From assembly GCF_013315695.1 (NCBI RefSeq), contig NZ_CP054353.1: a DNA stretch of 64,000 nt. One strand, written 5' to 3'. This document shows positions 25,902 to 53,940 of the stretch, one piece after another (the first letter of the stretch is position 1; the number at the start of each line of letters is the position of its first letter). The DNA is from Escherichia coli. GTDB taxonomy: Bacteria > Pseudomonadota > Gammaproteobacteria > Enterobacterales > Enterobacteriaceae. Both the position numbers and the translations under genes were made by a program. The notes under the pieces are model-generated. The model had not been told where the DNA came from. It ran no database searches and worked only from the letters and a program-made list of their open reading frames with translations.

Positions 25902-25911
25902 TGGACCAATT

Positions 25912-25940
25912 CAATGCCCCACAGAGTGGTGGGGCATTGA
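25912..25940. terminator. hairpin after ftsP, possibly bidirectional with the dctM remnant
   Basis: Perfect stem aatgcccca...tggggcatt. Confidence 0.4.
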
Positions 25941-25971
25941 AAATTACTCAGTATGCAGTCTTCACTGTGTA

Positions 25972-39980: not shown

Positions 39981-40022
39981 AAAAAAGCCCGGTATACACT
40001 TGTATACCGGGCTATTTTTTAT
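39981..40022. terminator. bidirectional terminator between the receptor gene and parE
   Basis: Hairpin agcccggtatacacttgtataccgggct flanked by an A-run and a T-run. Confidence 0.55.
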
Positions 40023-46958: not shown

Positions 46959-48119
46959 ATGGAAAGAGTCAGTATTACCGAGCGCCCGGACTGGCGCGAA
47001 AAAGCCCACGAATACGGTTTCAATTTTCACACCATGTACGGCGAGCCGTACTGGTGTGAAGATGCTTACTACAAGTTGACCCTCGCCCAGGTTGAAAAGC
47101 TGGAAGAAGTCACCGCCGAACTGCACCAGATGTGCCTGAAAGTGGTGGAAAAAGTGATCGCCAGCGATGAGCTGATGACCAAATTCCGCATACCAAAACA
47201 CACCTGGAGTTTTGTGCGCCAGTCATGGCTGACGCACCAGCCATCGCTTTATTCGCGTCTTGATCTGGCGTGGGATGGCACTGGCGAACCTAAGCTTCTG
47301 GAAAATAACGCCGATACGCCAACGTCACTATACGAGGCGGCGTTCTTTCAGTGGATCTGGCTGGAAGATCAGCTTAACGCCGGTAACTTGCCGGAGGGCA
47401 GCGACCAGTTTAACAGTTTGCAAGAAAAGCTGATCGATCGCTTCGTTGAGCTGCGTGAACAGTATGGCTTCCAGTTGCTGCATCTCACCTGCTGTCGCGA
47501 CACGGTGGAAGATCGCGGAACCATTCAGTATTTGCAGGACTGCGCGACGGAAGCTGAAATCGCTACCGAGTTCCTCTACATCGACGATATCGGGTTAGGT
47601 GAAAAAGGTCAGTTCACGGATTTACAGGATCAGGTGATTTCCAACCTGTTCAAGCTGTATCCGTGGGAATTTATGTTGCGTGAGATGTTCTCCACCAAGC
47701 TGGAGGATGCAGGCGTACGCTGGCTGGAACCGGCGTGGAAGAGCATTATCTCCAACAAAGCGCTTCTACCGCTACTGTGGGAGATGTTCCCGAATCACCC
47801 GAACCTGCTGCCCGCTTATTTTGCGGAAGATGATCATCCGCAAATGGAAAAATATGTGGTTAAACCGATCTTCTCCCGTGAAGGCGCAAACGTGTCGATC
47901 ATTGAGAACGGCAAAACCATTGAAGCAGCGGAAGGTCCGTATGGCGAAGAAGGGATGATTGTTCAGCAATTCCACCCGTTACCGAAATTCGGCGACAGCT
48001 ATATGCTGATTGGTAGCTGGCTGGTGAACGATCAACCTGCCGGAATTGGCATTCGTGAAGACCGTGCATTGATCACCCAGGATATGTCTCGGTTTTATCC
48101 GCATATTTTTGTTGAGTAA
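46959..48119 (+). CDS. ygiC: glutathionylspermidine-synthase-like ATP-grasp protein
   Basis: 386 aa. Confidence 0.8.
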
Positions 48120-48215
48120 TACAGCTTAATATTGCCCCGATAAGCGGGGCAATCTCTTATAATCCACCATTCATAATTCCCATCAATATATAAACACATA
48201 CATATCCAACCTTTA

Positions 48216-48245
48216 TTTAACATTAATACTCAATTTAATGTTAAA
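48216..48245. repeat. perfect 11-bp inverted repeat with an 8-bp spacer in the assT leader
   Basis: tttaacattaa-tactcaat-ttaatgttaaa, about 360 bp upstream of assT in very AT-rich DNA. Confidence 0.4.
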
Positions 48246-48603
48246 TCGTCATATGCAAGCGATATTGTAATTAAAGTAAGTGAATACATCACAACATAAC
48301 TATTTGATATTATTTGAATACTTTACTTTTATCTCACCAGATTTAAATTTAATAATTAAAAAACAATGTTGCAGGGATCACACTACACAGTATTGAACAT
48401 TGTGATTGATATATTGCCCCCCTACTATCCATTAAACATAAATATTTGTTTCACCGAATAACAACATATTTAAAAGAAACACAAAAGCATTCTCACTCTT
48501 TATTGAATTAATATTCATATTCACGTAACGAATTTATTAGAACCCTCTCAACAGTCGATATTCATCATTATTATATATTTGCGTTATATAAGGAGATATA
48601 TCC

Positions 48604-50400
48604 ATGTTTGATAAATATAGAAAAACACTCGTAGCCGGAACTGTGGCGATAACCCTGGGTTTGTCAGCATCGGGGGTGATGGCTGCGGGTTTTAAACCAG
48701 CGCCGCCTGCCGGGCAACTGGGTGCGGTCATTGTCGATCCCTACGGCAATGCACCACTGACCGCTTTGGTTAACTTAGATAGCCATGTTATTTCTGACGT
48801 CAAAGTTACCGTCCATGGGAAGGGCGAAAAAGGCGTAGAAATCAGCTATCCCGTGGGTCAGGAATCACTAAAAACTTACGATGGTGTACCGATTTTTGGT
48901 CTTTATCAGAAATTTGCTAACAAAGTGACCGTTGAGTGGAAAGAAAACGGCAAGGTCATGAAAGATGATTATGTGGTGCACACTTCGGCCATCGTCAACA
49001 ATTACATGGATAACCGCTCCATCTCCGACCTACAGCAAACCAAAGTCGTTAAAGTCGCGCCAGGTTTTGAAGATCGCCTCTATCTGGTTAATACCCACAC
49101 CTTTACCGCCCAAGGTTCCGATCTCCACTGGCATGGTGAGAAAGATAAAAATGCCGGTATCCTTGATGCGGGTCCGGCAACTGGCGCACTCCCTTTTGAT
49201 ATCGCGCCCTTTACTTTCATCGTCGATACCGAAGGTGAATACCGCTGGTGGCTGGATCAAGACACTTTCTACGATGGTCGTGACCGCGATATCAACAAGC
49301 GTGGTTATCTGATGGGTATCCGCGAAACGCCACGCGGCACCTTTACCGCTGTACAAGGTCAGCACTGGTACGAGTTCGACATGATGGGGCAGGTGCTCGA
49401 AGATCACAAACTACCGCGCGGATTTGCTGACGCTACTCATGAATCCATTGAGACGCCAAATGGCACAGTATTGTTGCGCGTAGGTAAGAGCAATTACCGT
49501 CGCGATGACGGCGTACACGTCACCACCATTCGTGACCATATCCTCGAAGTCGATAAATCTGGTCGCGTTGTAGATGTATGGGATCTGACGAAGATCCTCG
49601 ATCCGAAACGCGATGCACTGCTCGGCGCGCTGGATGCAGGTGCAGTTTGCGTTAACGTTGACCTTGCCCATGCAGGACAACAGGCAAAACTGGAACCAGA
49701 TACACCGTTCGGCGACGCTCTGGGTGTAGGGCCAGGCCGTAACTGGGCGCACGTTAATTCCATCGCTTATGACGCAAAAGATGACTCAATTATTCTCTCT
49801 TCTCGTCACCAGGGTGTTGTGAAGATTGGTCGTGATAAGCAAGTGAAATGGATCCTTGCACCCTCTAAAGGTTGGGAAAAACCGCTGGCCAGCAAGCTGC
49901 TGAAACCGGTTGATGCTAACGGTAAGCCAATTACCTGTAACGAAAATGGCCTGTGCGAAAACTCAGACTTCGACTTTACCTACACCCAGCATACCGCCTG
50001 GATTTCCAGCAAAGGAACGCTCACCATTTTTGATAATGGCGATGGTCGTCATCTGGAACAACCTGCCTTACCAACCATGAAATATTCCCGCTTTGTGGAA
50101 TATAAGATTGATGAGAAGAAAGGCACCGTTCAGCAAGTGTGGGAATACGGTAAAGAACGTGGCTACGATTTCTATAGCCCAATCACCTCCATCATTGAAT
50201 ATCAAGCCGACCGTAACACCATGTTTGGCTTCGGTGGTTCTATTCATTTGTTCGATGTCGGGCAGCCAACCGTCGGTAAGTTGAACGAAATCGATTACAA
50301 AACCAAAGAAGTGAAAGTGGAAATCGACGTGCTGTCAGATAAACCCAATCAGACTCACTATCGTGCATTGTTAGTCCGTCCACAACAGATGTTCAAATAA
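48604..50400 (+). CDS. assT: periplasmic arylsulfate sulfotransferase
   Basis: 598 aa; signal peptide; followed by a dedicated DsbA/DsbB-like pair. Confidence 0.8.
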   Translation: MFDKYRKTLVAGTVAITLGLSASGVMAAGFKPAPPAGQLGAVIVDPYGNAPLTALVNLDSHVISDVKVTVHGKGEKGVEISYPVGQESLKTYDGVPIFGLYQKFANKVTVEWKENGKVMKDDYVVHTSAIVNNYMDNRSISDLQQTKVVKVAPGFEDRLYLVNTHTFTAQGSDLHWHGEKDKNAGILDAGPATGALPFDIAPFTFIVDTEGEYRWWLDQDTFYDGRDRDINKRGYLMGIRETPRGTFTAVQGQHWYEFDMMGQVLEDHKLPRGFADATHESIETPNGTVLLRVGKSNYRRDDGVHVTTIRDHILEVDKSGRVVDVWDLTKILDPKRDALLGALDAGAVCVNVDLAHAGQQAKLEPDTPFGDALGVGPGRNWAHVNSIAYDAKDDSIILSSRHQGVVKIGRDKQVKWILAPSKGWEKPLASKLLKPVDANGKPITCNENGLCENSDFDFTYTQHTAWISSKGTLTIFDNGDGRHLEQPALPTMKYSRFVEYKIDEKKGTVQQVWEYGKERGYDFYSPITSIIEYQADRNTMFGFGGSIHLFDVGQPTVGKLNEIDYKTKEVKVEIDVLSDKPNQTHYRALLVRPQQMFK

Positions 50401-50417: not shown

Positions 50418-51086
50418 ATGTCGAAATTAGGGATCTCATCACTATTTAAAAGCATACTGCTTACTGCAGCTTTGGCTGTTTCATTTACCGCCTCTGCATT
50501 TACCGAAGGCACGGATTACATGGTTCTGGAAAAACCTATTCCGAATGCAGACAAAACGCTGATTAAGGTATTCAGCTACGCCTGCCCGTTCTGTTACAAG
50601 TACGACAAAGCGGTTACCGGTCCGGTATCGGAAAAAGTGAAAGATATCGTTGCTTTCACGCCGTTCCATCTGGAAACCAAAGGTGAATACGGCAAACAAG
50701 CAAGCGAAGTCTTTGCGGTCTTGATCAATAAAGATAAAGCAGCAGGCATTTCCTTATTTGATGCTAACTCTCAGTTTAAGAAAGCCAAGTTTGCCTACTA
50801 CGTGGCTTATCACGACAAAAAAGAACGCTGGTCTGACGGTAAAGATCCGGCTGCTTTTATCAAAACCGGTCTGGATGCCGCAGGTATGAGTCAGGCGGAT
50901 TTTGAAGCGGCACTGAAAGAACCAGCGGTTCAAGAAACACTGGAAAAATGGAAAGCCTCTTATGATGTCGCCAAAATCCAGGGGGTTCCAGCCTATGTCG
51001 TTAATGGTAAGTACTTGATCTACACCAAGAGCATCAAATCCATCGACGCGATGGCAGACCTTATCCGTGAGTTAGCAAGCAAATAA
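50418..51086 (+). CDS. dsbL: DsbA-like periplasmic thiol:disulfide oxidoreductase
   Basis: 222 aa; signal peptide; CPFC active site. Confidence 0.75.
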
Positions 51087-51100
51087 CAGGGAAACAGGCT

Positions 51101-51772
51101 ATGGGTATTAAGGGAATGTGGAAAGATCTTCGCACATCACCAGTTGACACACTGGTCAGATGGCAGGAGCAACGCTTGTTGTGGTTGTTAATGGCCGTTG
51201 CGATGGGCGCGTTAATTATCCTGGCGCACTCTTTCTTCCAGATCTATCTCTACATGGCACCCTGTGAGCAATGTGTATACATTCGCTACGCCATGTTTGT
51301 GATGGTTATTGGAGGATTGGTTGCAGCGATCAACCCAAAGAACATCATCCTAAAGCTAATTGGCTGCGTGATGGCATTTTACGGCAGCATTTTGGGACTG
51401 AAGTTTTCGCTCAAACTGAACGATATCCACCATGCAGTACATAATCCGGATCCCGATTCACTGTTTGGCGTACAGGGTTGCTCTACCGATCCAACTTTTC
51501 CCTTTAACCTGCCGCTGGCACAGTGGGCACCAAATTGGTTCAAGCCTACCGGGGATTGTGGCTATGACGCACCAATCGTTCCTGATGGCGTCACACTGAG
51601 CAGCACGCAACAGTGGTTTGTGGAAATGTATCAGCAATCTGAAGGCTGGTATCTGCTACCACCATGGCATTTTATGAATATGGCTCAGGCTTGTATGCTG
51701 GCTTTTGGTATGTGTCTGGTGCTGCTGGTCATTATGAGTGGCGCATGGGCGCTTAAAATCATCAGAGGCTAA
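51101..51772 (+). CDS. dsbI: DsbB-like membrane disulfide oxidoreductase
   Basis: 223 aa; TM helices with paired Cys. Confidence 0.75.
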
Positions 51773-51782
51773 CTCAGCAACA

Positions 51783-51817
51783 CCCGAAGCCAGTCATTCT
51801 GGCTTCGGGTTCTTTTA
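51783..51817 (+). terminator. rho-independent terminator after dsbI
   Basis: Hairpin cccgaagccag...ctggcttcggg followed by ttcttttatt. Confidence 0.5.
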
Positions 51818-53522: not shown

Positions 53523-53579
53523 AAGCAACATCAGAAGTTGTCCAGCGCATGGACAACTTCTGCCAGCTTCACTAAAGCC

Positions 53580-53750
53580 TTATTCTACCTTTTCGGCTGT
53601 CTCTTCTCTCGTACTGTTTAAGTATTTGTTCCGCGCTTCAAGCAGTGCGTCTCTGTCCTGGCGAAACGCCCGACAATAACGTTTCAAATGCAGGAAATAA
53701 CCCACAACAACAAGAGCAATCAATACAATCCAGTACCAGGCGATAAACAT
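53580..53750 (-). CDS. hypothetical small membrane protein (56 aa from the ATG)
   Basis: Single predicted TM helix (FIAWYWIVLIALVVVGYFL); AAGG before the ATG at 53750; the track ORF starts at an upstream TTG. Confidence 0.35.
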   Translation of the reverse strand: MFIAWYWIVLIALVVVGYFLHLKRYCRAFRQDRDALLEARNKYLNSTREETAEKVE

Positions 53751-53940
53751 CCTTTTACCCTTAATATTTAACAATACTAAACATTTAGCGCATAAATTTC
53801 ACATATCCTTTTTCGGATATATTCATATGGTCGCATAATAACGGAACAATTATATGATTTTGATCATAATGAAAAAGAATGCCTGATATTAATGAAATTT
53901 TCTCATAGAAAGAGAAGCGGAATTAACATCTTGCTTAGCA

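Follow-up and report, generated by a model that had tools for sequence, protein, structure and literature searches.

A candidate distal dyad upstream of the assT-dsbL-dsbI cluster of Escherichia coli

The DNA considered here is a 64-kb stretch of Escherichia coli, referred to as the window (64,000 nucleotides in full), in which the genes are ordered tolC-ygiB-ygiC / assT-dsbL-dsbI / ygiD(-)-zupT-yqiD(-)-ribB(-). The assT cluster (Table 1) is an accessory locus, present in 1508 of 5426 complete E. coli genomes (~28%). Many of the matching genomes come from human hosts, and ATCC 25922 and an O127:H6 strain are among the reference strains. Matches to the assT leader occupy 1510 places, one of them plasmid-borne, and at least one record, NZ_CP010157.1 (strain D10), holds two. 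In E. coli genomes that lack assT, the alignment stops at 48119/48120, the ygiC stop codon, which is the left junction of the island. The intergenic region between ygiC and assT is rich in A+T (70-75%, with 72% in the leader).

In S. Typhi, the assT-dsbL-dsbI operon is repressed by H-NS and activated by LeuO, as summarised in PMC4264507 with reference to Gallego-Hernandez 2012. In UPEC, assT is silent under standard growth conditions and is reported to be upregulated in the urine of infected mice (PMC7810732). Given this control by H-NS and LeuO and the silence in UPEC, sites for regulators are to be expected in the region upstream of assT. To our knowledge, the control of assT in E. coli has not been dissected so far.

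Within this region, the initial annotation had described a perfect 11-bp inverted repeat in the assT leader. Direct reading of the sequence confirms tttaacattaa-tactcaat-ttaatgttaaa at 48216-48245 and adds one A/T pair, so that the repeat is perfect at 12/12 positions and spans 48215-48246. Its 12-8-12 geometry is even-centred. Either arm is near-palindromic by itself (TTAA-CA-TTAA and TTAA-TG-TTAA) and of low complexity, and the two arms aligned as direct repeats are 8/10 identical; because the arms are quasi-palindromic, a perfect inverted repeat is easier to reach. The centres of the outer half-sites lie 23-24 bp apart, a distance that is unusual for a simple dimer. A role as island junction, att or recombination site was considered and rejected, since homology to assT-less genomes ends at 48119/48120 and the palindrome therefore lies 95 bp inside the island, away from the junction.

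Table 1. Features of the assT locus and related elements, in window coordinates
Feature	Position	Strand	Basis and remarks
Stretch from ygiC stop to palindrome, 95 bp	48120-48214	no strand	Holds G+C-rich hairpin (48131-48153)
Left arm ATTTAACATTAA	48215-48226	no strand	Perfect inverted repeat; conservation 0.98; contains invariant box ATTTAACAT, half-site TTTAACA and -35-like TTAACA (48217-48222)
Spacer TACTCAAT, 8 nt	48227-48234	no strand	Poorly conserved (0.53), different in every lineage
Right arm TTAATGTTAAAT	48235-48246	no strand	Perfect inverted repeat; conservation 0.78; contains half-site TGTTAAA (48239-48245) and weak -10-like TTAAAT (48241-48246)
Predicted CRP-type site TGTTG-N6-TCACA	48367-48382	+	Consensus match; GATCACA(C) nearly invariant across genera
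Predicted assT promoter	48400-48428	+	-35 TTGTGA (48400-48405), 17-bp spacer, -10 TACTAT (48423-48428)
assT, aryl-sulfate sulfotransferase, first gene of assT-dsbL-dsbI	48604-50400	+	ORF; Pfam PF05935 E = 5e-136, PF17425; RefSeq annotation
dsbL	50418-51086	+	DsbA-like match; RefSeq annotation
dsbI	51101-51772	+	NCBIfam DsbI equivalog, above cut-off; RefSeq annotation
Degenerate element TTTAAC-N17-GCATAAA	53767-53796	no strand	Upstream of native yqiD, assT absent there

The AT-rich sequence had been thought to raise the chance background for such a repeat. In 2000 dinucleotide-preserving shuffles of the 484-bp ygiC-assT intergenic region (28% GC; spacer of at most 20 nt), the best perfect inverted repeat reached 11 bp in only 1.3% and 12 bp in 0.3% (P ~0.003). 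Across the 64-kb window, five perfect repeats of at least 12 bp were observed against 0.13 expected from local shuffles, and the repeat upstream of assT is the only AT-rich one among them, the other four being G+C-rich. The outer half-site pattern TTTAAC-N15..20-GTTAAA occurs once in the window against an expectation of 0.04. As these tests already allow for composition, the inverted repeat exceeds what base composition predicts and is not a chance product of AT-rich DNA.

The four G+C-rich repeats are 12-13 bp long and lie at 51782-51810, 53532-53562, 39986-40013 and 25910-25941. The gap that separates dsbI from the convergent ygiD holds the first, and the second directly follows zupT; on account of these positions after dsbI and zupT, both are probably terminators.

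Alignment of assT leaders across genera reveals a strongly conserved block with a CRP-type site, a -35 and a -10 (48367-48428; 2272-2340 in the S. arizonae locus, L013). Relative to the CRP consensus TGTGA-N6-TCACA, the form found across genera reads TGTYG-N6-TCACA, with an invariant GATC. Wherever both are found, namely in Escherichia, Citrobacter, Salmonella and Intestinirhabdus, the distance between a CTACTATC block and the TGT of the CRP-like site is exactly 55 bp. Such an arrangement is suggestive of a CRP-dependent promoter of class I, with ~170 nt of 5′ UTR. Transcription is predicted to start near 48435, which would put the centre of the CRP site at about -61 and the centre of the palindrome at about -205. 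With the predicted start ~205 bp downstream, the main promoter probably follows the palindrome, which would then fall outside the transcribed leader; its original placement in the ‘assT leader’ is imprecise.

An insertion of ~150 bp (...GGCCCCGAAGGGGTGA...TGAAGTATGACGGGTAT) is found in the 5′ UTR of C. amalonaticus (L015) and Intestinirhabdus (L022), between the -10 block and the assT ATG. It looks like a repetitive intergenic element. The insertion raises the distance from the CRP-like site to the ATG to 355-371 bp and leaves the spacing between box and CRP-like site unchanged.

Conservation within E. coli was assessed with a 71-bp query centred on the palindrome, run against the 1508 assT-positive genomes. 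The region is identical in at least 1220 of them, with 26 more at 95-99% and 262 at 80-90% identity. In ST38-type alleles, whose leaders are ~80% identical, the left arm is exact while the right arm carries a G-to-A change (TTAATATTAAAT) and the spacer three changes. The SCPM representative, E. whittamii and the MOD1 clade also have this left arm without any change, and E. albertii retains it at 11/12 positions. The right arm takes the form TTAATACTAAAT in E. whittamii, TTAATGTCATAT in SCPM and TTAACGTTAATT in MOD1, and is unrecognisable in E. albertii. For the right-arm variants of the ST38 type, SCPM, E. whittamii and MOD1 (one or two changes each), no compensating changes were found in the left arm. 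Across Escherichia lineages, conservation reaches 0.98 in the left and 0.78 in the right arm but 0.53 in the spacer, with a leader mean of 0.70. Only 12 of the 473 12-mers in the leader are conserved as well as the left arm, and these cluster around the promoter and the ribosome-binding site. Judged from these alleles, the perfect 12/12 symmetry is specific to one allele, the commonest in E. coli.

Comparison with other genera shifts attention from the whole palindrome to its outer parts. The box ATTTAACAT is identical in three E. coli alleles, E. whittamii, the MOD1 clade, E. albertii, eight Citrobacter species and S. arizonae. In the eight Citrobacter species and S. arizonae, ATTTAACATCATTAAACATTTAACGTTAAAAT stands at the matching place and the right box, TTTAACGTTAAA, is shifted by one base, giving an outer inverted repeat TTTAAC-N17-GTTAAA. 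The Intestinirhabdus version is TTTAACA-N15-TGTTAAA. In S. arizonae and C. braakii the symmetry extends outward, not inward (TAAAATTT...AAATTTTA), and in Pseudocitrobacter the left box is missing. Among 63 loci, each one with both boxes contains TTTAAC-N17/18-GTTAAA a single time, invariably at the orthologous position, with no further copy in any of them. Local alignment of the 150 bp upstream of the CRP-like site in the island with those of S. arizonae scores best exactly at the two-box element (L013 2120-2152 in S. arizonae; 25/31 identical; score 30 vs 19.6 +/- 2.6 in shuffles).

On these alignments, what is conserved is not the perfect 12-bp palindrome but TTTAACA-N15/16-YGTTAAA, a bipartite element whose left box is invariant. 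The inner ATTAA/TTAAT symmetry, which makes the repeat 12/12 in E. coli, is probably incidental. Two-fold symmetry is, by the same comparison, not strictly maintained, because the right arm drifts without compensation, is lost in E. albertii, and the left box is absent from Pseudocitrobacter. Conservation of the palindrome in orthologous leaders, which had been proposed as its check, is partial, and the degeneracy that was to speak against the palindrome is in part observed: the outer half-sites recur in Citrobacter, S. arizonae and Intestinirhabdus, but the right arm is degenerate in four Escherichia lineages and gone from E. albertii.

The position of the element relative to the predicted promoter is also retained. 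From the start of ATTTAACAT to GATCACA, the distance is 161-162 bp in 13 taxa (three E. coli alleles, E. whittamii, eight Citrobacter species and S. arizonae), the E. coli window itself having 161 bp. In MOD1 and E. albertii it is 149 bp, which is 12-13 bp or about one helical turn shorter. The intervening 100 bp, by contrast, show ungapped similarity between E. coli and Citrobacter/Salmonella that is no better than chance (0.27-0.35 vs 0.30 +/- 0.04), and the distance from the CRP-like site to the assT ATG varies from 188 to 371 bp. Spacing that is kept while the DNA in between has diverged and the distance to the ATG varies suggests that the distance between element and promoter is constrained, with the qualification that the independent lineages are few and the promoter is a predicted one.

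In Citrobacter, Salmonella (L013 2207-2224) and Intestinirhabdus, the CRP-like site is preceded at ~60 bp by a second small palindrome, ATGAT-N4-ATCAT (ATGATTTTGATCAT). It is kept upstream of the native E. coli yqiD as well (53854-53869) and is missing from the island leader. The E. albertii leader (L008) has a counterpart, CTATGAT-TT-ATCATAG.

The genomic surroundings of the element differ between genera. In Citrobacter, Salmonella, Intestinirhabdus and Pseudocitrobacter, assT is divergent from the small ORF yqiD, which encodes 58 aa in 9 of the 11 loci examined. That yqiD encodes a small protein has been validated (PMC6001520). The element of Citrobacter and Salmonella sits in the divergent yqiD-assT spacer, with the yqiD start codon 16 nt from the left box. 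The native yqiD in the window lies on the minus strand at 53580-53750 (S. arizonae counterpart at L013 1930-2103, minus strand), and the 118 bp upstream of it (53751-53868) are homologous to the yqiD-assT spacer of S. arizonae (score 115 vs 18.6 +/- 2.8 in shuffles). At this assT-less locus only a degenerate GCATAAA is left of the right half-site, and this ties the complete dyad to assT being present. In the loci compared, the complete dyad goes with an adjacent assT, and the left box also travels with the 5′ flank of yqiD.

The placement of the assT-dsbL-dsbI cluster differs accordingly, in the yqiD-ribB gap in Citrobacter and Salmonella and in the ygiC-ygiD gap in E. coli. As the native yqiD keeps ~118 bp of the ancestral yqiD-assT spacer, the sequences imply that the cluster was lost at one site and placed separately a few kb away. 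Within E. coli, paralogy between the island element and the element upstream of native yqiD is not significant (22 vs 20.2 +/- 3.2); the link between them runs through the Salmonella/Citrobacter intermediate. A decayed yqiD 5′ end was considered for 48160-48199, on the strength of a CAT that, as in Citrobacter, is spaced 16 nt from TTTAAC, and was rejected because its alignments stay at shuffle level (16 vs 17.1 +/- 2.8).

Taken at its broadest, the palindrome is most likely an ordinary regulatory or promoter element, ~200 bp upstream of the assT promoter, rather than a special structure. Among specific readings, the one we prefer, tentatively and with somewhat less than even confidence, is a candidate distal protein-binding dyad upstream of assT. 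This reading builds on a repeat that is non-random, arms that are better conserved than the spacer, half-sites kept across genera and a spacing that is also kept. In this scheme, the bipartite TTTAACA-15/16 bp-YGTTAAA, of which the palindrome is the E. coli form, would be a cis-element in the distal part of the control region of assT. A dimeric or tetrameric DNA-binding protein would occupy the dyad, possibly a dedicated regulator, or one of the silencing or anti-silencing proteins known to act on assT. From its constrained distance, the bound protein might then affect the conserved CRP-type promoter that lies ~205 bp downstream. The repeat, its excess over shuffles, the conservation pattern and the spacing are observed; from sequence we infer the protein binding, the promoter, the start site and the action at a distance. 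The initial suggestion of a dimeric regulator site thereby gains from the non-random dyad, the conservation of arms over spacer and the recurrence of the outer half-sites, but the symmetry is degenerate and no known motif fits. In a scan of 25 regulator consensus sequences at the palindrome, whose matches would in any case be leads rather than tests, none matched better than in shuffles; the best, ArcA (12/15, P = 0.05 uncorrected), is not conserved in the ST38 allele. A more elaborate version, which we consider doubtful, makes the dyad a distal operator whose helical phasing relative to the CRP-dependent promoter is preserved (at 161-162 bp, or one turn less) despite complete turnover of the intervening DNA; it would switch the normally silent assT-dsbL-dsbI of UPEC on or off by looping or by seeding or blocking an H-NS filament.

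A different account takes the arms as the -35 and -10 of a distal sigma-70 promoter directed towards assT, ancestrally with a mirror-image partner towards yqiD, so that the symmetry would be a by-product of overlapping divergent promoters and the variable 8 nt would belong to an ordinary promoter spacer. In S. arizonae, TTAACA-18-TAAAAT (10/12) was flagged by the scan as the best promoter-like match of the leader and coincides with both boxes, whereas the E. coli TTAACA-18-TTAAAT scores only 9/12, lacks the A at -10 position 2 and was not flagged. The invariant left arm holds TTAACA, 5/6 to TTGACA, the two boxes keep a spacing of 17-18 bp over a spacer of free sequence, and the G-to-A change of the ST38 type leaves the TTAAAT hexamer intact. 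At the assT-less native yqiD locus the -10-like box is degenerate, and several assT transcription starts were reportedly found in S. Typhi by Gallego-Hernandez in 2012. However, promoter-like matches in AT-rich leaders are no commoner than in shuffles, and a start at this place would imply a 5′ UTR of ~350 nt. Moreover, Citrobacter FP75, C. amalonaticus and Intestinirhabdus have lost the final T of the -10 (TAAAAA) and kept GTTAAA, for which reason the conserved unit looks like a half-site and not like a hexamer. A distal promoter is the main rival to the preferred reading, if an unlikely one. Rather unlikely, too, is the absence of any sequence-specific function, in which case the palindrome would be H-NS-coated AT-rich island DNA with a chance symmetry of TTAAYRTTAA units, a remnant of patchy ancestry. 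The 72% A+T of the leader and the quasi-palindromic arms fit this explanation, as do the restriction of the perfect form to one allele group, a right arm barely above the leader mean (0.78 vs 0.70) and the post hoc choice of the element. Yet composition was already allowed for in the shuffle tests, the left arm is invariant across leaders that are at least 20-30% diverged and across genera with unalignable flanks, and the position is held within 1 bp in most taxa, at a single orthologous site per two-box locus.

H-NS binding depends largely on composition, and Lang et al. reportedly defined, in 2007, a 10-bp high-affinity motif, TCGATAAATT; this motif is matched at the palindrome at 7/10 positions at best (P = 0.86), in an AT-rich context (72-75% A+T). 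A site for LeuO, a LysR-type protein, that relieves H-NS silencing of assT would accord with the activation of S. Typhi assT-dsbL-dsbI by LeuO against H-NS repression (PMC4264507). The element can also be read as two quasi-palindromic units ~18-20 bp apart, comparable to the LeuO tetramer with its contacts to two adjacent imperfect palindromes (PMC6698644). For high affinity, however, LeuO has a 19-bp 7-5-7 palindromic core with T-N11-A (PMC6698644), at odds with the even-centred 12-8-12 geometry found here. The reference core was taken as ATATTCACAGTATGAATAT, since the text of PMC6698644 comes without the sequence and the K-12 cas3-casA spacer contains no other perfect 7-5-7 palindrome. Within 48195-48275, its best match has 5/14 mismatches and lies off the dyad (P = 0.66 in shuffles), and a better LeuO-like sequence exists elsewhere in the leader, at 48517-48535; all in all, a LeuO site at the palindrome is improbable. 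Still more improbable is a structural role, as an RNA hairpin or terminator in a transcript or as a DNA cruciform. Folding does give this hairpin as the structure of lowest free energy, at -9.3 kcal/mol for RNA (z = -6.4) and -7.6 kcal/mol for DNA (z = -5.9), and several right-arm changes are transitions after which G-U pairs remain possible in minus-strand RNA. Against this, the stem is almost entirely A-U, there is no U-tract, an intrinsic terminator scan at the palindrome found nothing, and Rfam gave no match near threshold there. Compensatory double changes are absent, Citrobacter and Salmonella would keep only a 6-bp stem with a 17-nt loop, and the element is probably upstream of the main start site. 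The cruciform proposed in the initial annotation is disfavoured by an 8-nt loop that hampers extrusion and by perfect symmetry that is not maintained.

The preferred reading, a distal protein-binding dyad, can be set beside several known systems. At araBAD (araO2) and melAB (the upstream MelR sites), distal operators act on a CRP-dependent promoter over a fixed, phase-sensitive distance. The assT dyad likewise lies about a couple of hundred bp upstream of a promoter with a predicted CRP-type site near -61, and here too the distance is conserved (161-162 bp or one turn less) and the sequence in between is not. Unlike those systems, the assT element has no regulator encoded nearby: no cognate regulator gene adjoining the cluster was seen in the window or in the S. 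arizonae locus. Looping is something that we purely infer, and TTTAACA matches neither system.

The H-NS/LeuO-controlled region of S. Typhi concerns the same operon and is equally AT-rich, and the orthologous leader of S. arizonae has the CRP-like site, the -10 block and the two-box element of E. coli. In contrast to that region, the assT palindrome does not fit the LeuO core and agrees with the high-affinity H-NS motif at only 7/10 positions. A further parallel is bioA/bioBFCD, in which overlapping divergent promoters are governed by one imperfect palindromic operator, the 40-bp bioO. The Citrobacter/Salmonella element similarly occupies a divergent spacer, 16 nt from the yqiD start, with -35/-10-like sequences on both strands, and the assT element is dyad-symmetric over ~30 bp. 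It differs from bioA/bioBFCD in that the E. coli island has no divergent partner gene and the E. coli hexamers are weak, and, unlike for bioO, we know of no repressor for the assT element.

The palindrome adds a new and uncharacterised case to an ordinary class of cis-elements. As a conserved element at a fixed distance from a putative CRP-type promoter, it offers a concrete target for mutagenesis and for pull-down of the factor that releases assT expression; otherwise it is a routine cis-regulatory candidate that leaves current ideas unchallenged.

Other sequences in the island leader drew attention in their own right. A repeated AACAT/AACATT half-site was considered and set aside, as its excess in this allele (7 vs 2.7 expected) has no parallel enrichment in the ST38, MOD1 and E. 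albertii leaders. In the predicted 5′ UTR, ATATTCACGTAACGAATTT (48517-48535) agrees at 12/14 positions with the probable LeuO core ATATTCA-N5-TGAATAT and is weaker in the ST38-type allele. For the stretch between the ygiC stop and the palindrome (48120-48214), no counterpart was detected in Citrobacter or Salmonella, and its similarity to yqiD regions is not significant. Its hairpin, ATTGCCCCG-ATAAG-CGGGGCAAT, directly follows the ygiC stop, already inside the island, and neither of its strands carries a T-run. Ten nucleotides from this hairpin, ATATTGCCCC, are found again at 48411-48420, beside the predicted -10.
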